Assembly (NCBI GenBank): GCA_964187785.1
Contig: OZ076409.1
Coordinates: forward strand, 67,334,001 to 67,398,000
Reading direction: 5' to 3'
DNA from: Amphiscolops sp. MND2022
Lineage: Eukaryota
Length of the DNA: 64,000 nt
In this document: in pieces, positions 13,405-46,800 of the stretch
Position numbering within the stretch: position 1 is the stretch's first letter
How the letters are laid out: each line of letters begins with the position of its first letter
Position numbers and translations under genes: made by a program
Notes under the pieces: model-generated
Database searches by the model: none
Told to the model about the DNA's origin: nothing
Seen by the model: the letters and a program-made list of their open reading frames with translations, nothing else

Positions 13405-14827
13405 AAGTTTTTCTGAGAGTTCGTACCCTCGTATAGTGTTTGTGAAATCATGGAAACTGACTGCATCTTGAAACCTGAACATTCGTCCATAAAAGCAGGA
13501 GAGATTTGCTCAGACTGCGGTCTTGCTCGGGAATTCATTTCATTTATCTTTCCGCAATTCAGGTCTTTATGATCACAGCAACGTTCTAAAAAGGTGAATA
13601 AATATTTGATATTCAATACCTTGCTTGTAGCTATCAATCATTTTTTGTCAAATTCAAGGTGTGCACGACAGGAAAGTGACAGCTTTCGACAAAAGGAACA
13701 AACTCCTAATGAGAGACAAGCGGTTATGACGTATTTAAACGAACTTTGAAAATATTAATTGTATACAACAGTTTCAATTCTTCATTCTAAAAAAAGCTGG
13801 GAACAGGCTCTACAGTCACTGGATATGAGACTTACGAGAGCGATGTTTCTGCAATTTTTCAAGGTAAGCAAAAAACGATGACTACACATATTTTCTGCCT
13901 ATTTTTTAAAACCTTTATTTTTCAAATTGTTTCCTATAAACTCGTAAGCTCAGCAAAACTCCAAATTCATCTATATTTTTCAGTAGAGAAAATTTGTAAT
14001 TTGTAAAGACTTCATTTTGCTTTGGGCATGAAAATCAAATACCCAAGGGTGTTGTTTAAATTTAGCCACCACCAACTTTTCTTATATGATAGAGCCGAAA
14101 TTGTAGACTTCATTGTTTAAAGCAATTGTTTCTCGATTCAAACCAAAAATTTTTTTTCTTTCAAGAGTCACTTATGTTCTCTTAATTTCTTGAACTAAGT
14201 TTTCGAATCTGTTGCTCAATTCTTGTCTCCTCTCAGCTAGTTCTTCATGTGTTTATTATACCTCGTTCCTGGCTTCAGATCATTTCACAGGGAATTATTA
14301 GCAACTTCAACTAAAGTCTTATTGTCTTGAAACTCTGTCTCTGACTTCCTTTCCATTCCGTCCTGGGACAGGTATTCAGATCTCCTCAATCTTCTTTTTT
14401 TGTTTGATCTCGAACTATCTTCTGTTTGATTTGAAGTAAATCAAATAAGGAAATGCCGAAGCTAAATCTATCTCAAGAGATAATTGAATATTTCGGAAGA
14501 GATGGAGATATGCCTCAATATATACTAGGGTACCAAAAAGCTAAAGACAATCGATTCAAATCCCAACAAAGTTTTACAGAGTGAATTGACAAAAAAAGTC
14601 TCAGGAGCAAAACTTCGAAGGAGCAAATGGACTCAAATTGTGTTGACACAAAACACAACGATTACGTAATGAACGGTCGCTTGCTTGAGTGAAGAACTGT
14701 GTGTGCGCTCGCCATACAAATCGCACATTGAACATTAGCATTGCCTCATTTCAAAAGTGAAACATTTCAACGTTTTGAAACATTTAAAACATTGTTACTT
14801 CCTGTTTTATTTTGCCGAAAACTTATC

Positions 14828-15718
14828 ATGTCGGTAAGAGCTGAAGCACAACAAGACAGGGAACTACTGGCCAACATCCAGGATGAAGGTTTGCGGCATT
14901 ATCTGGAAAAACTCTCGGAGAAGGTTGATCAAAATCATTCTGATACAAACAAAAGGTTGGACGAACTTTTCAAACTTTATGATGATATAAATGAGCGGCT
15001 TCGAGCACAAGAGAGGTACTCAAGTAAAGATTCTCTCATTATCAACAATCCCCCTTTTGACCCGAGGGATGAAAAAAATCTTTTGAAAAACATATTGGAA
15101 TTCATCACTGGTACCTTAAAAGTTCGAGATGTAGATAGATACAGCTTCAAAGCCTATCACTTGCTACCACGTCCATATCTCCCAGATAACTTGATGCTAC
15201 CCATAATAATAAAGTTTGTTTACTTCAATGACAAAGACAGAGTTTTGGCGGCGAGAAAACTTCTCAAAAAAGTTAAAAATACAATAAATGGGAAAAATAT
15301 CTATATCAACGAACGCCTCCCATCCTTCGATAATCAACTAAAGAAAGACGCTGAAGCCTTGAACTACATAACGACAACACGGAACTGTATTGTATCAGTC
15401 TTGTGTGAAAAAGCAGATGGAACCAAGCTGTTTATTCCCATCAAAAGTGCAGAAGACCTCAAAGCATTGCGGAACCCTGTTGAAAGACCTGCCAATTTGT
15501 ATGGAAGTGCTCCAGAAACTGCAGCGAAGAGAAAATTTAGCGTGATAAAAAACGATGAGGAGAAAATGATGATGATTTTTGCGTCCATGTCACCCGAACA
15601 AAAGTTTTCTTGGAGAAAGCCAAAGCTGATAACGAAAACAACTGAATATAGAAAGAAAACTACACTTTCTCTATATAAACATAAACAATTAAGCATTTGT
15701 GTTCCTTATTTAATCTAA
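14828..15718 (+). CDS. LINE ORF1 protein (coiled coil plus L1-ORF1-like RRM/CTD region)
   Basis: First ATG at 14828. Motifs LRAQERYSSKDSLIINNPP, PIIIKFVYFNDKDRVL and IYINERL are typical of invertebrate LINE ORF1. The C-terminal tail may be frameshifted. Confidence 0.85.
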   Translation: MSVRAEAQQDRELLANIQDEGLRHYLEKLSEKVDQNHSDTNKRLDELFKLYDDINERLRAQERYSSKDSLIINNPPFDPRDEKNLLKNILEFITGTLKVRDVDRYSFKAYHLLPRPYLPDNLMLPIIIKFVYFNDKDRVLAARKLLKKVKNTINGKNIYINERLPSFDNQLKKDAEALNYITTTRNCIVSVLCEKADGTKLFIPIKSAEDLKALRNPVERPANLYGSAPETAAKRKFSVIKNDEEKMMMIFASMSPEQKFSWRKPKLITKTTEYRKKTTLSLYKHKQLSICVPYLI

Positions 15719-15847
15719 ACTTGGATAAAAGAGCAAATTATTACTCTCTTTGAAATCATGATGAAAACTTAGGGTATAAAAAAAACGATTGTACAATTAA
15801 TCTTATAACGTTTTTGCATTTATTCGTTTATTTTTCATGTCTTTTTA

Positions 15848-15973
15848 TGTGGGGACGATTCTCCGTTTCCCACAGCAGCGATTCTCCGCTGCCCAAGAAA
15901 AAAAAACAAAAGAAAAAGGCGAAAAAGAAGAAAAATTTCGAAATGTAGTAGAGACGATTCTCCGTCTTTGCTG
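15848..15973 (+). promoter_or_regulatory. Three stem-loops with identical ATTCTC loop in the LINE inter-ORF spacer
   Basis: tgtggggacg-attctc-cgtttcccaca (15848-15874), gcagcg-attctc-cgctgc (15875-15892), tagtagagacg-attctc-cgtctttgctg (15946-15973). Function unknown. Confidence 0.7.
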
Positions 15974-16218
15974 TTTTCTGTTTTTCATACTTTTTTTCTC
16001 TCTATTCAAAACAACATTTGCCAAATTTCTGCATGTGACCCAGGCGATTGGCATGACATAGGCGCACATCAGTTCTTTGTTGCAACAAATTCGACCTTTC
16101 ACTTTGCAAGAAACCAACAAGAGACAAAAACACTAAAAACACTGCCGCCTTGTAACGAAAAAAAAAATAAACCAAAAGTTTGACTGCAAATTTGAAAAAC
16201 CAAAACTTCGAGAACTGT

Positions 16219-18999
16219 ATGGTAGAGGGGTTGACATTTTTCTATAATAATATAAGATCAGTATCAACAAACTTAGGTGATCTAGAAATTTTGATAGCAG
16301 AATCAAAACCATCTGTTATCGCACTAACTGAAACGTGGTTTAAGAACGAAAATGATGTAGAACTTTATAGCATAGACGGATACCACAGACCATTTACCAG
16401 TACTAGGAATAAAAGACGAGGTGGAGGAGTAGCAATTTATGTTACGTTAGACTTGGAAGCAGAACTAATACACACTGATGAGATACATGAGTCAGTATCA
16501 GTAAAAATTAGTGACTCCAAAAAGAAAAAGAAAATCACTGTTTCTTGTTTTTACTGTGAACCTTCCAGAAACAGAAACCAGTATCTAGAACACGTTGAAG
16601 AAGTGTTGATGAAAAATGGCGACGGTTTACAAATAGCATGTGGTGACTTCAATATTGATCTCTTGAACGTGTCCCTTGCAGCACGGGTAACGCTAGAATA
16701 CTTGATGTCTTCACAAGGACTTGATTTGGTTAGTTTGAGAGAACCTACTAGAGAAACTGCTACATCAAGTACATGTATAGATTCGATATACAGCAATGTT
16801 CCTGTTCAACGATCCCTGATAGTAAAGACTACATTCTCTGATCACTACAGCTTGAAATTGGATATCAATATATACCATGAGGTCGTAGAAAACATCTATG
16901 AATTTAGATCCTTGAAAAAATTAGAAGATCCTCTCTACTGTGAAAAGTTTCTCTTTTACTTGAGTCATTCTCTGGGGAAAATTGATGAGGTAAACACAGA
17001 AGCCGAAGCATATCTTGATAAGGTTGCACAACTACTTCACGATGCCACAGACAAATACTTTCCGCTAAATAAAGTAAAAAGACGCGTTTGCAAAAAAACA
17101 TGGATAACAAATCGTATAAAACGGCAAATAGCTACTAGAGATAAACTGTACCAGCTATGGATCAAAACAAAAACAGAGCTTGATCACGAAAAACACAAAA
17201 AGAAACGGAATGAAGTCAACATGGAGATTAAAATTGCAAAACGAAATGAAGTTCAAAACAAAATTGAGCAAAATAATCCAAAAGAACTGTACAGACATAT
17301 TAAAAAAATGAAAGGAACTGACACCCAAGTGAAAAATTTTGGAGGACTATCTGTTGAAGACTTCAATAAATATTTCGTCACTGCTTGTGATAAACAAAAT
17401 AACACGTCCGCTCCTAAATGGAAAAGTCAGCAAGTTGACCAACCGCAATCTATGTTTCTACGTCCAGTAAATGATGATGAAATATTGAAAATTATCGCAA
17501 CATTGAAAAACAAAAAATCTGTTGGAAAAGATGGTGTAGATGTCAGAGTTTTAAAGAAAGCGGCACAAATTGTTAGTCCTTACCTAAAAACTGCCTTTAA
17601 TAAATGCATTTCAGAAGGAGTTTTCCCCCAAAGTATGAAAATTGCCAAAGTAGTTCCAATTTTTAAAGCCGGAGAAAAAAATTTACCTTCAAATTACAGA
17701 CCAATCTCAATTTTGGGTAATTTATCAAAAGTATTTGAGAAAGTAATCCACGAAAGATTGATGAACTATCTAGAAAAGTTTTCACTCCTTTCGGAAAATC
17801 AATACGGATTCAGGAAAAAGAAAAATTGTATCCAAGCAGCAACATCGCTATATAAAATAATAGAAGAAAATTGGCAATCCAAAGCCAAAACGAACTGCAT
17901 TTTTGTCGACTTCAGGAAAGCATTTGATTCAGTTGATCATAAAATCTTGTTAGAAAAGTTGTACCATTATGGTATTAGAGGGATTCCTCATAAGCTCTTG
18001 GAAAATTATCTGGCAAATAGATTTCAGTATGTTAAAATTGAAAATGAATGTTCAAAAATGAGATCGATAAAACGTGGAGTACCACAGGGATCTATTCTTG
18101 GCCCACTTTTGTTTCTTGTATATATTAATGACCTGGGTGCAGATGAAAATTGGCAGAGCGAAGTTGTAAAATATGCTGATGACACAGTTATGATAGAAAA
18201 ATTAAACTCTAGATCAGATGACAAAAGTTTATTTCAAAGCTGGCTGAATGAAAATGACGTTGACTGTAATTACATGAAAATGAAGTTTGTTGTTTTCGAG
18301 AAGAGATCAGTAAATCATCCAAATATAGCAATTGGGGATCATGAAATTTCCTCATGTGAAAACTACAAGTACTTGGGCATACATTTTGATAAAAAATTGA
18401 ACTTTGAAGTGCACATTAGTAAAATCACTGGGAAACTTGCACGACAGAGTGGAATTCTTTACAAATTAAGAGAAACACTGAACAAAAGACAGTTAGTACA
18501 ATACATCGGATCATATATATCGCCAATTATTCAATATGGGGTTCTTTTGTATGGTTTAAGCCCGAAAACAAGACTACAAAAAATCATGGTACTTCAAAAA
18601 AAAATAATTCGGATAGCATTCCGACTTCCACCAAGGGCTAGTGTAATGGCAAAATTTAAAGAGCTAAAAATTGGCACAGTTTTTGAATACCATATATACG
18701 AAGTTTTCAAGTACTCTATTAATGAGATTCGAAATGGTTTCAAAAATTTGAAGATTGGGGCTCAAACCAGGCAGACAAGAAACAGAAGCCTAAACGTTTG
18801 GAACTTCGCTGCAAAAACTGATCGGCTAGATTCTCATGCAATAATACTAATGAATGCTTTACGCAAGTGGAGTGTCTTGCCGTCCGAGGAAAATATATGT
18901 GAAATGGATGAAAAGCAGGTTCAAAACTTCTATCACCAAATTTCAGATCTATATATTTTTGGCAACGGTGAACTGATCGATCTCCTCTACAATAGATAA
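16219..18999 (+). CDS. LINE ORF2: apurinic-like endonuclease plus reverse transcriptase
   Basis: APE motifs NNIRS, LTETW, GGGVAIYV, GDFNID, TCID, SDH. RT motifs NYRPIS, QYGFR, DFRKAFD, GVPQGSILGPLLF, YADD, YKYLG. The frame is open from 16180 and the first ATG is at 16219. Confidence 0.97.
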   Translation: MVEGLTFFYNNIRSVSTNLGDLEILIAESKPSVIALTETWFKNENDVELYSIDGYHRPFTSTRNKRRGGGVAIYVTLDLEAELIHTDEIHESVSVKISDSKKKKKITVSCFYCEPSRNRNQYLEHVEEVLMKNGDGLQIACGDFNIDLLNVSLAARVTLEYLMSSQGLDLVSLREPTRETATSSTCIDSIYSNVPVQRSLIVKTTFSDHYSLKLDINIYHEVVENIYEFRSLKKLEDPLYCEKFLFYLSHSLGKIDEVNTEAEAYLDKVAQLLHDATDKYFPLNKVKRRVCKKTWITNRIKRQIATRDKLYQLWIKTKTELDHEKHKKKRNEVNMEIKIAKRNEVQNKIEQNNPKELYRHIKKMKGTDTQVKNFGGLSVEDFNKYFVTACDKQNNTSAPKWKSQQVDQPQSMFLRPVNDDEILKIIATLKNKKSVGKDGVDVRVLKKAAQIVSPYLKTAFNKCISEGVFPQSMKIAKVVPIFKAGEKNLPSNYRPISILGNLSKVFEKVIHERLMNYLEKFSLLSENQYGFRKKKNCIQAATSLYKIIEENWQSKAKTNCIFVDFRKAFDSVDHKILLEKLYHYGIRGIPHKLLENYLANRFQYVKIENECSKMRSIKRGVPQGSILGPLLFLVYINDLGADENWQSEVVKYADDTVMIEKLNSRSDDKSLFQSWLNENDVDCNYMKMKFVVFEKRSVNHPNIAIGDHEISSCENYKYLGIHFDKKLNFEVHISKITGKLARQSGILYKLRETLNKRQLVQYIGSYISPIIQYGVLLYGLSPKTRLQKIMVLQKKIIRIAFRLPPRASVMAKFKELKIGTVFEYHIYEVFKYSINEIRNGFKNLKIGAQTRQTRNRSLNVWNFAAKTDRLDSHAIILMNALRKWSVLPSEENICEMDEKQVQNFYHQISDLYIFGNGELIDLLYNR

Positions 19000-19067
19000 A
19001 TAAGTGTCAAACCTCTACCTCAACCAAGTTTCTGTTTTAACCAATAACTCATACCTTTTTGTTGTAA

Positions 19068-19113
19068 AAAAGGATTCCTCACGAAAAGCCTTTGTGCTTG
19101 TAGGAATTCTTTT
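19068..19113 (+). promoter_or_regulatory. LINE 3' UTR stem-loop (likely RT recognition signal); second copy at 22198-22243
   Basis: aaaaggattcct/aggaattctttt 12-bp stem enclosing aagc-ctttgt-gctt. L2/CR1-group LINEs are known to use 3' stem-loops. Confidence 0.7.
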
Positions 19114-19774
19114 CAGGGGCTTTTATATATATATATTTTTACTTTGAAATTATGGAACATGTATAACGCCACCTGATAAATTCAATTATTATAAATTCCT
19201 ATCAGAAGTACAGAAGTTTTTTTTTACTATTTTATGTTTTATGTTTTTGATGAAGCAAAACTTCAAGGCAGCAAAACAGACTCAAATTCTGATCAACTAA
19301 ATGAATTACCATGAATTGAAGCTTCAAATAAAAATTACAGAACTTATAACACTTAGCTTACATTTTTGACACTTAGCTTACATTTTTGTATTTTTGACTG
19401 TTGGTATTTCTGAAATTTATCATAACATATATCAAAAGTTGCTGTCCGTAACCAAAAATGTCGGCAATAAACTTTGTACCTTTGATTCAGATCTCTAACT
19501 TTTGACTTTGACACTTTTTCGGAACACTCCCTTCCTAAAAATATCGTGTAAACTTCAAAGAGCGGGTGTCAAGGCTACAAAATGATCGTAAGATGTTTTT
19601 CGTCTGTCAGTGTTTTTTTTGAGGTATTGCGTAATGAAGTTCGAAAACTCCTCAAAATACTAATTTATATAACTTTTGAAAATTTGGTTCGACTTCAAAA
19701 CAAAAAATAACGTTGTATTTCTAATCGAAATTTGAGATACTTTTGACTCAGGGACTTTTTTGTAGAACGAGTAT

Positions 19775-20060
19775 ATGATAAGATGTTGCGCTTCGAAACT
19801 TTTCGTCAGCCAAATCGAGTGTCTATATTTTTGGTACCCTAAGGTCAAAGTTGGTATTGAGAGGGTTCGAGTTTGCAACCCATTTAGAAGGATTAAGGGA
19901 TTGAATCAAAGGATCGGGTTTGGTTTTTTCTGTCTCGCAACACCGTTTATGAATTTAAAAACTTAAGAAAACTGATGGCCATGCCACACGCCACTATTGT
20001 CATGCGGTCAACTCTGATGAACCTACCGTGTTTCGGTCTAGACAACTAGCGAGTTGTTTA
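19775..20060 (+). pseudogene. Possible decayed Penelope-like element 3' end with degenerate hammerhead; duplicated at 22905-23190
   Basis: Translation W..KVKV..E....FRRIKGLN resembles a GIY-YIG C-terminus. It is followed by caact-CTGATGA-(accg tgttt cggt)-...aactag..-agttg. Confidence 0.3.
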
Positions 20061-20581
20061 CTAACAAACTCTGAAGAACTACTATACGCATTTATCATGT
20101 ATTCACGTACATTTCTTTTGTTACGAAACGGTTAATTGGAAAGAGATTTAATTTAGTAATCCGCGTTTTTTAACCCCAGCCTTGGAATAAAATAACTATG
20201 ACGTCACGGAAATCTCAAAGGTAAAAAGAAATCACAGTAACTAAACCCGCTGGTGTACTTTTGGCAATCTTGAGTTATATAGATAGTGTTTTTAAATTAC
20301 AGCATTTCGATCATCACGCCGATCTTTCGAAAATATGATTTTCTGCGTTTTTCCGCAGGATGATTTAGCATGGCGGAATTCACAGTGATTCATGATTCAG
20401 CATAATGGTAATCGTTAAGAATAACTATCAAATAAAAAGGAAATGGGAATAAAATTAGAGATGAAAAGAAGTGAAATAGGACCACTCGATGTTAAATGGA
20501 TTCAATGCAGATTTGTAAAATGTTCAAAATAACACGTCCGCTCCTAAATGGAAAAGTCAGCAAGTTGACCAACCGCAATCT

Positions 20582-22129
20582 ATGTTTCTACGTCCAGTAA
20601 ATGATGATGAAATATTGAAAATTATCGCAACATTGAAAAACAAAAAATCTGTTGGAAAAGATGGTGTAGATGTCAGAGTTTTAAAGAAAGCGGCACAAAT
20701 TGTTAGTCCTTACCTAAAAACTGCCTTTAATAAATGCATTTCAGAAGGAGTTTTCCCCCAAAGTATGAAAATTGCCAAAGTAGTTCCAATTTTTAAAGCC
20801 GGAGAAAAAAATTTACCTTCAAATTACAGACCAATCTCAATTTTGGGTAATTTATCAAAAGTATTTGAGAAAGTAATCCACGAAAGATTGATGAACTATC
20901 TAGAAAAGTTTTCACTCCTTTCGGAAAATCAATACGGATTCAGGAAAAAGAAAAATTGTATCCAAGCAGCAACATCGCTATATAAAATAATAGAAGAAAA
21001 TTGGCAATCCAAAGCCAAAACGAACTGCATTTTTGTCGACTTCAGGAAAGCATTTGATTCAGTTGATCATAAAATCTTGTTAGAAAAGTTGTACCATTAT
21101 GGTATTAGAGGGATTCCTCATAAGCTCTTGGAAAATTATCTGGCAAATAGATTTCAGTATGTTAAAATTGAAAATGAATGTTCAAAAATGAGATCGATAA
21201 AACGTGGAGTACCACAGGGATCTATTCTTGGCCCACTTTTGTTTCTTGTATATATTAATGACCTGGGTGCAGATGAAAATTGGCAGAGCGAAGTTGTAAA
21301 ATATGCTGATGACACAGTTATGATAGAAAAATTAAACTCTAGATCAGATGACAAAAGTTTATTTCAAAGCTGGCTGAATGAAAATGACGTTGACTGTAAT
21401 TACATGAAAATGAAGTTTGTTGTTTTCGAGAAGAGATCAGTAAATCATCCAAATATAGCAATTGGGGATCATGAAATTTCCTCATGTGAAAACTACAAGT
21501 ACTTGGGCATACATTTTGATAAAAAATTGAACTTTGAAGTGCACATTAGTAAAATCACTGGGAAACTTGCACGACAGAGTGGAATTCTTTACAAATTAAG
21601 AGAAACACTGAACAAAAGACAGTTAGTACAATACATCGGATCATATATATCGCCAATTATTCAATATGGGGTTCTTTTGTATGGTTTAAGCCCGAAAACA
21701 AGACTACAAAAAATCATGGTACTTCAAAAAAAAATAATTCGGATAGCATTCCGACTTCCACCAAGGGCTAGTGTAATGGCAAAATTTAAAGAGCTAAAAA
21801 TTGGCACAGTTTTTGAATACCATATATACGAAGTTTTCAAGTACTCTATTAATGAGATTCGAAATGGTTTCAAAAATTTGAAGATTGGGGCTCAAACCAG
21901 GCAGACAAGAAACAGAAGCCTAAACGTTTGGAACTTCGCTGCAAAAACTGATCGGCTAGATTCTCATGCAATAATACTAATGAATGCTTTACGCAAGTGG
22001 AGTGTCTTGCCGTCCGAGGAAAATATATGTGAAATGGATGAAAAGCAGGTTCAAAACTTCTATCACCAAATTTCAGATCTATATATTTTTGGCAACGGTG
22101 AACTGATCGATCTCCTCTACAATAGATAA
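20582..22129 (+). CDS. RT-only ORF created by the tandem duplication (C-terminal 515 aa of ORF2)
   Basis: Identical to ORF2 from MFLRPV onward and lacks the endonuclease domain. Confidence 0.85.
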   Translation: MFLRPVNDDEILKIIATLKNKKSVGKDGVDVRVLKKAAQIVSPYLKTAFNKCISEGVFPQSMKIAKVVPIFKAGEKNLPSNYRPISILGNLSKVFEKVIHERLMNYLEKFSLLSENQYGFRKKKNCIQAATSLYKIIEENWQSKAKTNCIFVDFRKAFDSVDHKILLEKLYHYGIRGIPHKLLENYLANRFQYVKIENECSKMRSIKRGVPQGSILGPLLFLVYINDLGADENWQSEVVKYADDTVMIEKLNSRSDDKSLFQSWLNENDVDCNYMKMKFVVFEKRSVNHPNIAIGDHEISSCENYKYLGIHFDKKLNFEVHISKITGKLARQSGILYKLRETLNKRQLVQYIGSYISPIIQYGVLLYGLSPKTRLQKIMVLQKKIIRIAFRLPPRASVMAKFKELKIGTVFEYHIYEVFKYSINEIRNGFKNLKIGAQTRQTRNRSLNVWNFAAKTDRLDSHAIILMNALRKWSVLPSEENICEMDEKQVQNFYHQISDLYIFGNGELIDLLYNR

Positions 22130-24764
22130 ATAAGTGTCAAACCTCTACCTCAACCAAGTTTCTGTTTTAACCAATAACTCATACCTTTTTGTTGTAAAAA
22201 AGGATTCCTCACGAAAAGCCTTTGTGCTTGTAGGAATTCTTTTCAGGGGCTTTTATATATATATATTTTTACTTTGAAATTATGGAACATGTATAACGCC
22301 ACCTGATAAATTCAATTATTATAAATTCCTATCAGAAGTACAGAAGTTTTTTTTTACTATTTTATGTTTTATGTTTTTGATGAAGCAAAACTTCAAGGCA
22401 GCAAAACAGACTCAAATTCTGATCAACTAAATGAATTACCATGAATTGAAGCTTCAAATAAAAATTACAGAACTTATAACACTTAGCTTACATTTTTGAC
22501 ACTTAGCTTACATTTTTGTATTTTTGACTGTTGGTATTTCTGAAATTTATCATAACATATATCAAAAGTTGCTGTCCGTAACCAAAAATGTCGGCAATAA
22601 ACTTTGTACCTTTGATTCAGATCTCTAACTTTTGACTTTGACACTTTTTCGGAACACTCCCTTCCTAAAAATATCGTGTAAACTTCAAAGAGCGGGTGTC
22701 AAGGCTACAAAATGATCGTAAGATGTTTTTCGTCTGTCAGTGTTTTTTTTGAGGTATTGCGTAATGAAGTTCGAAAACTCCTCAAAATACTAATTTATAT
22801 AACTTTTGAAAATTTGGTTCGACTTCAAAACAAAAAATAACGTTGTATTTCTAATCGAAATTTGAGATACTTTTGACTCAGGGACTTTTTTGTAGAACGA
22901 GTATATGATAAGATGTTGCGCTTCGAAACTTTTCGTCAGCCAAATCGAGTGTCTATATTTTTGGTACCCTAAGGTCAAAGTTGGTATTGAGAGGGTTCGA
23001 GTTTGCAACCCATTTAGAAGGATTAAGGGATTGAATCAAAGGATCGGGTTTGGTTTTTTCTGTCTCGCAACACCGTTTATGAATTTAAAAACTTAAGAAA
23101 ACTGATGGCCATGCCACACGCCACTATTGTCATGCGGTCAACTCTGATGAACCTACCGTGTTTCGGTCTAGACAACTAGCGAGTTGTTTACTAACAAACT
23201 CTGAAGAACTACTATACGCATTTATCATGTATTCACGTACATTTCTTTTGTTACGAAACGGTTAATTGGAAAGAGATTTAATTTAGTAATCCGCGTTTTT
23301 TAACCCCAGCCTTGGAATAAAATAACTATGACGTCACGGAAATCTCAAAGGTAAAAAGAAATCACAGTAACTAAACCCGCTGGTGTACTTTTGGCAATCT
23401 TGAGTTATATAGATAGTGTTTTTAAATTACAGCATTTCGATCATCACGCCGATCTTTCGAAAATATGATTTTCTGCGTTTTTCCGCAGGATGATTTAGCA
23501 TGGCGGAATTCACAGTGATTCATGATTCAGCATAATGGTAATCGTTAAGAATAACTATCAAATAAAAAGGAAATGGGAATAAAATTAGAGATGAAAAGAA
23601 GTGAAATAGGACCACTCGATGTTAAATGGATTCAATGCAGATTTGTAAAATGTTCAAAAGTTGGGCTGTTGGTTTTGTTTCTCGACAGCAAATTTTGCGC
23701 CTACAATTTGTAAAGCTACAGCCAAACACGTTAAACTTGGCTCATATAACGTTTTAAATTGTAAGAAACTTATTGTAATAAGAAGCGGTAGAAAATATGA
23801 ATTTGAAAATCGGAAATAATTTTGCATAGTGCAAAGATCGAATATCGACTCACTGTTGCAAAATAGCCGAACAAAATAAATACTACAGATCACACAAAAA
23901 TTGTGCAAAAGAGAAAAAACGAGACTAGATGATGAGTTATCCTCTAATAGAAATATTAGGAAATGTTAAGTTGTACGAACATTGTTTAAGAAGCTCATCT
24001 CGTAGAAAAATTCCCGAGGAACAAATCAGACTTTTTTGCCGACGAAAATGAAAACTAGCCTGGAGCTGAATCATTACCCAAATTAGAGCAATGACCGCCG
24101 TTTCTAGCAGTAATAAGGCTGCTGAAACAGGCTCAAAGAAAGCTGGAAATATGGTTTTTACAAAAATTTCAGGATTTTAAGGTCTTTCCTTTGTAACTTT
24201 CCGATAGTGGGTCTGGACGTTTGAGAGCATATTTCTCCGCCTCTGGAATCGACAGGAGTGATAAATTGCAAGTTTTGGAAAGCCCTTGAAATGACCTTTC
24301 ATTTGGTACATTCGCATTTCTCAGTCCTAAACAGGTGAGCAGTTGTTAGGATTCTCATCAAAATTTTGGAAGCCAGACTACGTTATCGTAATTTTTCACG
24401 CATTTTTGAATGCAAAATTTTTTCAGCAGGTTCAAGCATTTTGATTATGAAAACGAGTAGAATAGTCGTTGTTGGGTGAAATGAGCCTTTAGATTGAGTC
24501 TCGGCTGCTTGAACCGAAGGTATAGTGTTTTTTTGATAATCTTAAAATTTTGTCCATCGTGATAAGATACGATCTTGGAATAAGTATTATCTTAGTAAGA
24601 TCTTAATAAGAATCTTGCCATGGGATCCATGGTTGCCAAGATCCAGTAAGAATTTGGCAAGATCTTACCAAGACAGCCAAGATGCTAGTAAGAGGGTCAA
24701 CCCGGGCAGTACTAACAAGGAATATACATGTATAATATATATCACGATTATTGAAGGCTCAAAA

Positions 24765-43078: not shown

Positions 43079-43594
43079 CAGTGAAGTTTTTTCCCAATCA
43101 ACCTTGCTTTCAACTCTTGCCTCGAGTTCTAATGACGGTACTGTATATGGTTTCATGCATGAAGTCGTATCATACAGTGAAAGCGTGTCGTTCACATGGT
43201 TTCATGCATGGAGTTGCATTGAAACATCATGAATCCAGACCTGGATAATTATGCAGACTAGTCCAGGATTTGGAAAAACGCTACTATGCCCTTTGACATG
43301 GAGCATTTCTATACTTCTCGAGGTCAGTTTTTCGTTGTAAAACTCTAAATTTATAACTAATGTTTTCAATCATTGGCTGGAATACTCAAGCTTAGGAATC
43401 ATTCCATGATGATGGAGACACATCCATGATTCATGGATTATCATTACGGAAAAGCCATGATTAGGGGTGAGCGGTTCGACAAAAAATGAAATCAGTTCAG
43501 TTACCGTTCGGTTCGTGCAAAATTTATCGGTTTCGTTTTCGGTTCGGTTCTGAAAAAAAAGGTAAATCTTTAAGTCAAAAAACTTTTTTCTTGA

Positions 43595-43740
43595 CAAAGA
43601 TGAATTTTCATGCAACAGTAGAATGTCTCTAACAGCATCTTCAGATAAACTTTGCCTTCGTGGTGTCATCTTGTTTCCACCTGCACTCCAAACTCGCTCA
43701 CTTGGAGTTGCCGGTGCAGGTACTGCGAACAGCAATAAGA
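43595..43740 (-). pseudogene. hAT transposase C-terminal dimerisation-domain remnant
   Basis: LFAVPAPATPSERVWSAGGNKMTPRRQSLSEDAVRDILLLHEN matches the P..S..ER.FS......R..L consensus. Confidence 0.88.
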
Positions 43741-43810
43741 TTTCACATCTGCCTATTATCTTGGCGACAATTTCTCTCTCCGGCCGAACCGAATTCATCG
43801 GTTTGGTTAT

Positions 43811-46800
43811 TATTTTCCGTCCATATTTCATATGGAAAAGGAAAATATTTAAATCAAACGGTTTTTTTTACAAGATTTGCCAAGAATTTATTTTTATCAA
43901 AATATCAAAGCTGAAGGGTTTCACCCATAGAATTCAGCTGATGTAAAATTAGCGTCATGCGGTATGTATTTGTGGAGATTTTTGGACTTTTTTGGTTGAC
44001 CTCGAAGACCCCAGAATGACCCAAAAATGACCCGAAAATAGTAAAAACTGCAAAATTTTCCAATTTTTACCGTTATTATGCAATTTTTGTCGAATTTTTG
44101 ATAGATTTCGTGGCTTTGAATAATGAAAGAGAAAATTTTCGTTATCCAAGAGGCTTTTTCAAAGAAATAAATGCAACTTTAAAAAGAAAAAATGCCTCAA
44201 ATTGCAATCGAAACTGAAAAAACTTCCAAAAAGTTCAGATTATTACCGTTTTTATGCAATTTTTGTCAAATTTTTGATACACTTGCTAGCTTAGAAAGTT
44301 AAAAACATTCAACAAGGAAAGAGTTTGTTGTCCAAGAGGCGTTATCGAAGTTATAAATGCAATTTGATTTGTAAAAATGCCTCAAATTCAGACCGAAAAT
44401 GACAAAAATCCCAGAAACTTCAGATTTTTGAAAAATTCATGCAATTTTCGTCTATCTTTCGAATGAGCTGGTGGCTTAGAATGTCAAAGACGTTCATAAA
44501 AGAAAACATTGTGAGTCTTGTTTGAAGAGGTAAAAGCAATTTGTGCTGGAAAAATGCATCAAACTCACACCAAAATTGACAAAAAAAAACTAAAATGTTC
44601 AGATGTTTGAAAATTTTATTCAATTTTTGTTCATTTTCTAAAGACTTAGTGGCTTAGAATCACACAGACGTTCAACAAGGAAACAATTCGTTGTCCGGGG
44701 CTTTTTTGAAGAGGTAAAAGCAATTTTTGCTGGAAAAATGCATCAAATTCACACCAAAATTGACAAAATAGGTAAAAAGTTCAGATTTTTGAAAGTTTTA
44801 TTCAATTTTTGTGTATTTTTTAAAGACTTAGTGGCTTAGAATCCCACAGACGTTCAACAAGGAAACAATTCGTTGTCCGGGGGGTTTTTTCAAGAGGTAA
44901 AGGCAATTTGTGCTGGAAAAATGCATCCAATTCACACCAAAATTGACAAAAAAAAGTGAAAAGTTCAGATTTTCGAAAATTTTATTCAATTTTTGTGTAT
45001 TTTTTCAAAGACTTAGTGGCTTAGAATCCCACAGACGTTCAACAAGGAAACAATTCGTTGTCCGGGGGCTTTTTTGAAGAGGTAAAAGCAATTTGTTTTG
45101 GAAAAATTCATCAAATTGAGACCTAAAATTACCAAAAAATTCAGGTTTTTGAAAATTTTCTGCAGTTTTTGTGTACTTTTCGAAAAACTAGGTGGCTTAG
45201 AGAATTAAAGACGTTGAACAAAGAACAAATTCGTTGTCAAGTTTTTGTTTAGAAGTAGACAAAGTTTTCTACTGAAAAAAAGAACGCACAATTTGCTACC
45301 AAAATTGACGAAAACTTCAAAATGTACCAATTTTTCATCTTTTTATGCAACTTTTGTCATATTTCTAGAGATTTTGTGGATCAAAACGTTGAATACGATC
45401 AACAGCGAATGATTTCGTTGTCCAATAGGTTTGTTTGCTGAGATAAATGCAGTTTTGTAAAAAAAATTGCAACAAGGACCACGAAATAGTCAACAAATCT
45501 TACTTTTTTTTACATTTTTGTAATTTCCAACGCAACTTTCGCGAAAACTTCAACCTTTTCACAAATGAAAACTCTGAAACGGTTCAACAAGAACTGAAAG
45601 TGTTCTCTTGTAGGCTTTTTGATGGGATATGTGCCAGTTTCTGATAAAAAATTAAACTTTGATTCGACACAAAAAGTGTCGAAAAGTCCTAAAAATTCCA
45701 GTTTTTGTAGGTTCTTCATGTTATTGGAGTATCATTTTTGAGAATATTGGTAGATTAGATGGTTCAAAACATTTTGAGGTGATAGAATGATGTATGTAGT
45801 TTCCTTTCTGATGAGAAAATTATAGTGTTTTACATCAGAAATTTTTCAAGTTTGTCGTTTTTCCTGCAGTTTGTGTTCAATTTTTGAAAGTTTCTGTGAC
45901 CAAGAATGTTCAAAGCATTCAAAACACTCAAAAACTATGAAACTAGCTATGCTGTATGCTATTTTGAAGAGAGTTGCAGTATTTTGCTTCAAATTTACTT
46001 TTCTTGCTTCTTTTTTTGCTTCAAGAGTGGCCCTGATTAGTCCGATATAAAAAGTCTAAATTCAACGTTTCTTATGCAAAGTTCCGAATTTTTTGAGAAG
46101 TTTCCATCGTCTGAAGAAGAAAAACTCTCCAAAGCAAACGATGCGTTGTTCAGTAGGTCTTTTGCAGGTGAATTGCAGTTTCGCGTTAGAAAAGAGCCTC
46201 AAAATGACCCCAAAATAGTCGAAAAAAAATTTGGCAGTTGTTTGACAAATTAGTGAATTTCTATTGAAAGTTACCAAAAGTTCGTAATATTCTAGAAGTC
46301 TAAATTTTTTGAGTAGGCATGCAGAATGTAAAGAAAAGAAATCTACAATTGTGTATGCAAAAAGTTCGTCAGAATGATTTGAACTTTAGCGAAAATTCGT
46401 TTTTTGTTTTTGAAATGTTGATATACTTTTATGTAAACGTTTCGAGCAATTTTGTAATTCAAGAATGAATGGACCCGTTATCCGAAAAGCGTCTTCGAAA
46501 AGACATCTACAGTTTCTTATAAAAGTTCCTCATATGACCGCAAAGTTGTCGAAAAGCAAAAATCTACAATTTTTGACATTTTTGGCAACTTCACGCAAAT
46601 TTAAAGAAAATTTATTTGATTGGTTAGGTTTCACACAATCTGACGAAAAAACAAATAGGTGTTTGGTGTCTTCTTAAAGTGTTTCCTCCTGAAATGGCAT
46701 AACATTATTCAAAAAGTGTCAAACCTTTTTCCATCAAACCTCTACGCGTTTTCATAGTGTAATGGCTACTCTTGAGTCTCAAAAATATGTCATTGCTTGA

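Follow-up and report, generated by a model that had tools for sequence, protein, structure and literature searches.

What three hairpins with a common apex are doing between the two open reading frames of a LINE is the question raised by this locus, which we analyzed within a 64,000-nt window of the Amphiscolops sp. MND2022 genome (positions below are those of the window). How ORF2 is translated in LINEs, why long spacers are retained and whether ORF1p recognizes its own RNA by sequence are treated as open questions in the accessible text of the literature (PMC4072516, PMC5972666, PMC12503042).

The hairpins lie in a full-length young element, hereafter family A, which matches another copy in the genome at 99.1% identity over 4547 nt. 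Its copies are dispersed and variably truncated at the 5′ end, and the family may resemble the CR1/L2 clade. The principal features are as follows.

14664..19194, plus strand: full-length young LINE of family A, APE+RT type, ~4.5 kb
14828..15645 (family stop), plus strand: ORF1, 273 aa, with coiled coil, RRM and CTD followed by a pair of helices at the C terminus
15848..15874, plus strand: hairpin 1, 10-bp stem; apex 15856-15865
15875..15892, plus strand: hairpin 2, perfect 6-bp stem; apex 15879-15888
15946..15973, plus strand: hairpin 3, 11 bp including G-U pairs; apex 15955-15964
16171..18999, plus strand: ORF2 open frame, 942 codons, first ATG at 16219; PF03372 (E 1.7e-10) and PF00078 (E 1e-33)

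The ORF2 domains, an APE endonuclease and a reverse transcriptase, identify an APE-type non-LTR retrotransposon. A Pfam search with ORF1p returned nothing at cut-off. Its predicted structure (pLDDT 80) has human L1 ORF1p as its top 11 structural matches (best E 2.4e-6), and as modeled the protein has the coiled coil, single RRM and CTD that place an ORF1 in type II (L1-like) in the scheme set out in the accessible text of PMC4120745. The spacer, initially annotated at ~500 nt, has that length in the window copy only, because a 4-nt deletion near 15601-15605 shifts the ORF1 frame and moves its end to 15718; the family stop ends at 15645, leaving a spacer of ~575 nt. This family spacer contains six upstream AUGs and carries the hairpin sites at +211 to +320 nt from the ORF1 stop, the last hairpin lying ~245 nt before the ORF2 ATG.

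Exact copies of the 10-mer CGATTCTCCG start at 15856, 15879 and 15955 on the plus strand between ORF1 and ORF2; a first-order model expects 0.024 occurrences per strand of the 64-kb window. The sense fold of 15830-15990 has an energy of -51.5 kcal/mol (z -5.95), equaled by 0/200 shuffles, and the antisense fold has a z of -1.59, equaled by 7/200. Local folding gives the closing G-C pair a probability of 0.97-0.98 in hairpins 1-3; at the two other exact CGATTCTCCG matches in the window it is 0.00 and 0.02. The stem arms are dissimilar, with 2-7 of 16 bases identical between hairpins, and hairpin 3 is predicted to extend as an irregular A-rich/U-rich stem out to 15921/15996. The basic description in the initial annotation, three hairpins with one apex on unlike stems that still pair (10, 6 and 11 bp), is thus borne out by folding. 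Its further claim that G-U pairs in hairpins 1 and 3 work only on the sense strand holds for hairpin 3 (-13.8 sense vs -5.4 antisense) and is weak for hairpin 1 (-13.0 vs -11.0). Hairpin 2 is energetically better on the antisense strand and, counting both hairpin-bearing families (A, and B below), the sense strand is favored in only 3/8 hairpins, the other five folding as well or better antisense. A scan of 15600-16300 against Rfam gave 12 sub-threshold matches and none at the gathering score.

The hairpins are not confined to the window copy. Twenty-two family A copies cover the whole spacer (identity 89-100%), and 20 of them keep all three 10-mers. A second family, B, with 46% identity to A in ORF1 and 39% in ORF2, has a 398-nt spacer with four copies of the apex, the fourth with one mismatch, and a fifth in older B copies; its sites lie at +111 to +279 nt from the ORF1 stop. 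The two families share the apex CG-AUYYUC-CG, and the rest of their spacers is unalignable. The apex, described initially as invariant, is thus exact in the three window hairpins and varies as AUYYUC in the loop across families A and B.

We assayed the pairing of the stems by arm swapping on eight hairpins (three from A, five from B). Among all 40,320 pairings of 5′ and 3′ arms, only the natural one reaches the best score, and natural arm pairs average -12.2 kcal/mol vs -5.3 for swapped ones. When arms were shuffled, seven of the eight hairpins were beaten by at most 8/500 shuffles and the eighth by 27/500. Arms share just 1-7 of 16 bases in most hairpin pairs across A and B, each pairing with its own partner. 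An ungapped alignment of nine hairpins contains 27 double-change cells vs 10.9 when shuffled (0/500 shuffles equal) and 6-11 when the partners are slid, figures that do not count independent events because the hairpins are paralogues and partly related. By eye, a U-A to C-G double change is seen in hairpin B4 of the older B copy L310.

Selection was also sought in divergence. Differences between young and old B (apex 0/48, stem 2/98, other sites 10/270) are not significant, and the comparison of B subfamilies thus gives no significant sign of purifying selection. In dead A copies the apex is mutated at 2/30 sites vs 40/350 elsewhere, and in old B copies apex divergence is 0.162 vs 0.127; such even decay is expected once a copy has inserted. 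Judged from the sequence comparisons, the hairpins are a real RNA element under selection, new in form and of a known kind, the cis-structures at LINE ORF1/ORF2 junctions. The proposal of selection on RNA structure gains strength from family B, a related LINE with four to five hairpins, in which the apex recurs on different stems that still pair.

We then asked where the motif occurs. A genome search for two motifs 8-38 nt or 39-69 nt apart gave 22 and 28 matches, of which 21/22 and 26/28 belong to A or B, and controls gave 0. The three matches outside A and B lie in sequences other than LINEs, where the apex does not fold. None of the spacers of 18 further ORF1 families contains the hairpin motif; these families were taken from the best-scoring among ~1000 candidates, and there may be more. 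The single 12-mer matches at 211 sites genome-wide vs 87 in the control; among 40 sites outside A and B, sampled from the first 100 listed, the apex is folded with P≥0.9 in 5, and in two repeat families among the sampled sites it does not fold. One repeat (L219, L220, L221 and L124) has direct repeats ~14.7 kb apart with the 12-mer once in each, the hairpin not folded, amid several related short motifs. In metagenomes, a scan by ORF1 alignment found no match, and a paired-motif scan returned 37 loci, 0 with LINE ORFs. ORF1 relatives from other genomes (P0005-P0011 and P0037) were not found in the source genome; P0037 is an other-genome member of the A/B ORF1 clade. Motif copies within elements are all on one strand.

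A third family, A′, shares ORF2 with A at 99% identity; from 16124 onward, through the 3′ end, it matches the window element at 98.8% identity. Upstream it has a different ORF1 (33% identity), kept in five near-identical copies, and a ~100-nt spacer with 0 hairpins. As A′ mobilizes the same ORF2 without hairpins, this ORF2 does not need them. The junction is defined as follows.

16124, plus strand: recombination point; downstream 98.8% identical to A′, upstream 83% identical to L026
16176..16190, plus strand: orphan 3′ arm of a stop-linked stem, without its partner in the window element

L026 is a single truncated copy in which the 83%-identical A-type spacer, with hairpin 3, is joined at the 16124 point to a 36%-identical ORF2. 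We built ORF1 and ORF2 trees from family representatives, one row each, with five other-genome ORF1s added and L026 entering without an ORF1. The ORF1 tree groups A and B in one supported clade (99/97), apart from all other families of this genome. On the ORF2 tree (FastTree only), the three motif-bearing ORF2s need three separate origins. The motif is thus passed on together with one ORF1 clade, whichever of three unrelated ORF2s accompanies it, and sequence comparison indicates that ORF1 plus spacer is a swappable cassette. Since the spacer adjoins ORF1 and the motif occurs in two sister lineages only, this is co-inheritance, as distinct from co-evolution. We considered the C-terminal helix pair as a hallmark of the hairpin clade and rejected it; it aligns with the helix-SP-helix tail of the other clade.

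Recombination joining an ORF1 to an unrelated ORF2 has been described for CR1/L2/Jockey elements (PMC4120745, accessible text). Unlike in those cases, the breakpoint, descendants of both parents and an orphan RNA arm are visible here, and each type of ORF1 is accompanied by a spacer structure. ORF1 swapping is frequent in this genome. As a separate observation, one ORF2 clade (71-99% identity; L064, L077, L170, L027 and the window element) occurs in combination with five different ORF1s or more. The position of the window ATG at 16219 reads GTG in A′ (L027), and no Met lies near the start of the A′ ORF2 frame; non-AUG initiation of A′ ORF2 is possible.

Spacers of many other families carry a second kind of structure. 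Of 17 other families tested, 11 have a duplex joining the region of the ORF1 stop to the spacer that outscores every one of 60 shuffles. Nine of these (A′ and eight more) have the same 14-bp stem with conserved arms and a loop of 57-74 nt, beginning between 22 nt before and 3 nt after the ORF1 stop.

L027:1469-1570, plus strand: 14-bp stem (family A′)
L170:1310-1411, plus strand: 14-bp stem
L151:1270-1379, plus strand: 14-bp stem
L154:1198-1290, plus strand: 14-bp stem
L155:1288-1396, plus strand: 14-bp stem
L092, L082, L152 and L153, minus strand: 14-bp stem

All 126/126 cells of this stem are paired, with double changes at 5 pairs, equaled by 0/500 shuffles. The nine families have very different ORF2s and related ORF1s: the motif RK[SA]WL occurs in 11 ORF1 families, nine with the stem, RKSWL being present in all nine; of the two without it, one reads RKAWL. 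At the same stop-linked position, families D and C1 carry a stem whose sequence differs. We regard the sequence-conserved, covarying 14-bp stem as a candidate device for coupling stop to start. A UUG in the stem arm was considered as a common ORF2 start and rejected, its frame differing between families by eye. In the window element the best upstream partner of the orphan arm gives -12.0 kcal/mol, vs -20.9 in A′, and because the 3′ arm is retained without its partner, family A is marked as the recombinant. Families A and A′ amount to a natural experiment, young families with 99% identical ORF2, different ORF1s and different covariation-supported spacer structures, and about twenty further families in the genome extend the comparison. 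This pair, together with the other covarying stem, opens the specificity of ORF1p and the translation of ORF2 to direct testing.

A further helix is predicted around the hairpins of the window element.

15580..15592, plus strand: 5′ strand of the predicted long-range helix, in the last ORF1 codons; pair probability 0.95-0.97
16054..16066, plus strand: 3′ strand of the predicted helix, containing a short block found also in the family B spacer

All three hairpins would fall inside this helix, and a candidate bridging helix is seen in young B at the homologous codons. In a first unbiased shuffle test the helix failed in both A and B (26/60 and 19/60). A wider window gave 3/60 for A, and windows chosen afterwards gave 2/200 for A and 0-3/200 for 6/8 young B copies; it fails in 6/6 older B copies tested (one further copy could not be located). 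A bridging helix around the hairpin domain is suggestive only.

What reads the hairpins? A fixed loop and two fixed pairs, set on interchangeable stems and repeated three to five times, probably mark a protein docking site. Because the hairpins stay with ORF1 when ORF2 is swapped, the RNA-binding protein encoded by ORF1 is a plausible occupant, and we tentatively favor the reading that they are repeated sites at which the element's own ORF1p docks. Freshly synthesized and, if L1 is a guide, trimeric, ORF1p would recognize the AUYYUC loop closed by G-C and C-G pairs 110-320 nt past its own stop; three to five sites would form an avid seed for RNP assembly in cis, and docking might also tune translation. 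With less confidence, we suggest that the long-range helix, joining the final codons of ORF1 to the end of the spacer, could loop out the hairpin domain and bring the end of ORF1 close to ORF2, as the stop-linked stem appears to do elsewhere. ORF2 would then be made by reinitiation, the hairpins not acting as an IRES.

Several observations are consistent with docking of ORF1p: the apex occurs in two families on different pairing stems and is co-inherited with one ORF1 clade, the ORF1p model matches the RRM-CTD of L1 ORF1p, a second ORF1 subclade has its own conserved spacer structure (9/11 RK[SA]WL families), and the paired motif is in no other repeat family, where convergence on a host factor might predict otherwise. 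Against it, the two sister ORF1 lineages represent one event that physical linkage explains equally well, and an apex that stays constant while ORF1 identity falls to 46% fits an unchanging host protein no less. Family A, the more numerous, has lost the 5′ arm of the stop-linked stem, and its spacer may replace a translation function. The young-versus-old B differences are not significant, the bridging helix fails its first test, and the sense bias is 3/8 only. L1-type ORF1p is usually regarded as a general RNA binder of low sequence specificity. It is also described, in the accessible text of PMC4120745, as a single-strand binder and chaperone.

Small hairpins read by an element's own packaging protein and repeated for avidity are familiar from the MS2 operator and retroviral psi. 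The likeness to these phage coat-protein operators and psi hairpins is one of working, with no homology, and the LINE sites are candidates. On a wider reading, possible in our view but doubtful, L1-type ORF1s would have cognate inter-ORF RNA operators, ORF1 and operator forming swappable cassettes, with iterated CG-AUYYUC-CG hairpins in one clade and a sequence-conserved 14-bp stop stem in another. If true, operators would give a sequence-specific basis for cis-assembly and for coupling the translation of ORF2 to ORF1.

We think it rather unlikely, if still a serious alternative, that the hairpins are pads for a host RNA-binding protein that protects, localizes or times the decay of LINE RNA. 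The sites are iterated and pyrimidine-rich, 111-320 nt past the ORF1 stop and ahead of an effective 3′ UTR of 3.5 kb, and a fixed host protein would account for the unchanged apex. The model here is the RSV RNA stability element bound by PTBP1, whose repeated pyrimidine-rich sites within ~400 nt past the first stop, that of gag, shield RNA from decay (PMC4764554, accessible text). Those sites, unlike the loops closed by fixed pairs found here, are degenerate linear CU tracts with no conserved hairpin apex described, so that the two fixed G-C pairs go unexplained, and the 18 other families face the same long-3′UTR problem without the motif.

A second host candidate is Roquin, whose hexaloop our loops resemble in the UUYU core. 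In its alternative decay element (ADE) a stem of 5-8 bp carries a six-nucleotide loop whose third and fifth positions are U (PMC5603727, accessible text). The ADE shares with our hairpins a U-rich hexaloop and a fixed apex on a variable lower stem, and it acts in clusters, an arrangement our hairpins also have. The hexaloop-stem arrangement is found here, with U at position 5 in 9/9 hairpins and at position 3 in 8/9. Its other features are not: loop position 6 is C in 7/9, A in one single copy and U in one, where the ADE reads GUUYUA, and the closing pair is G-C in 9/9, stacked on C-G, where the ADE is closed by C-G. C at position 6 abolished Roquin binding in a G1 context, as far as the accessible text of PMC5603727 and PMC11730611 reports, and the ADE sits in host 3′ UTRs. 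We therefore rejected the hairpins as a Roquin ADE.

It is also unlikely, slightly more so, that the hairpins form an IRES-like or reinitiation-enhancing module that carries ribosomes to ORF2 through a host initiation or trans-acting factor, the second function proposed in the initial annotation. Their place between the ORFs and the six upstream AUGs of the A spacer fit such a role, as does the fact that A stays active after losing half of the stop-linked stem used by A′. Mammalian L1 offers parallels, being bicistronic and of APE type, with an ORF1 of type II and a spacer whose sequence matters: translation is by termination-reinitiation in human and by a nucleolin-bound IRES in mouse (PMC3592465 reports a mouse L1 IRES), and the long native megabat spacer works 8.8-fold better than a shuffled one, its persistence being called unexplained (PMC4072516); looping of stop to start has been proposed for L1 (PMC5972666). 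Unlike our elements, L1 has no fixed-apex iterated hairpin or covarying stop stem described in the accessible text of these papers, and here the natural pair A/A′ shares ORF2 at 99% with and without hairpins. That A′ mobilizes this ORF2 hairpin-free speaks against the module, and family D spans a 361-nt spacer with a stem and 0 hairpins. The UGGGA of TURBS is absent upstream of the ORF1 stop in A and B, and the close stop and restart of TURBS are not found (~575 nt in A, 398 nt in B). Pairing of the apex, stem arms and bridge arms with 18S rRNA (from L261) was nowhere beyond shuffles, the best being 10/200 for two A′ arms and the complementarity weighed against the module giving 35-119/200. 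There is also no Rfam family at gathering score, and the distance of the last hairpin from the ORF2 ATG does not favor it. The iterated candidate binding site proposed alongside it in the initial annotation is the better fit.

SART1 of the silkworm also has an RNA structure near the ORF1/ORF2 junction of a non-LTR element, for translational coupling (PMC5972666, accessible text); it has an overlapping stop-start and one downstream structure, unlike the ~575-nt spacer with three to five hairpins here. Our search of the open literature, with subscription journals, repeat databases and supplements outside its scope, found no published description of either the iterated hairpins or the stop-linked stem, in keeping with the initial annotation of the motif as undescribed.

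We consider it improbable that the motif acts as DNA, either as an internal promoter or as a CG-N6-CG site whose spacing suits a dimeric transcription factor, the stems being incidental. The 10-mer is invariant in the window with inverted CG ends, and 5/8 hairpins fold equally or better antisense; yet the flanks covary far beyond chance, which a DNA site would not need, motif copies lie on one strand, and truncated copies have no fixed internal start. That the hairpins are a functionless by-product of local duplication or slippage in a neutral spacer, as the equal mutation of the apex in dead copies might suggest (a decay also expected after insertion), is very improbable, since the arms are mostly 1-7/16 identical yet each pairs with its own partner, and the apex persists across families with unalignable spacers.

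Some further observations concern copies and flanking DNA. In L023, L024, L025 and L026, 4/4 A-type spacer truncations begin either at hairpin 2 or 3 or immediately 3′ of it (15891-15899, 15972), and only 1/4 partial older B copies does so, which bears on an idea of reverse-transcriptase stalling. On the minus strand, window 43370-43867 holds a fragment like a hAT transposase dimerization domain, below cut-off. A small stem-loop was seen by eye in the LINE 3′ UTR at 19071-19109; in stringent LINEs, the signal recognized by the reverse transcriptase sits in the 3′ UTR. Finally, a 3135-bp perfect tandem duplication (17395-20529 and 20525-23659) takes in the LINE's 3′ half together with adjoining DNA, and is a local duplication or an assembly artefact, not a second insertion.
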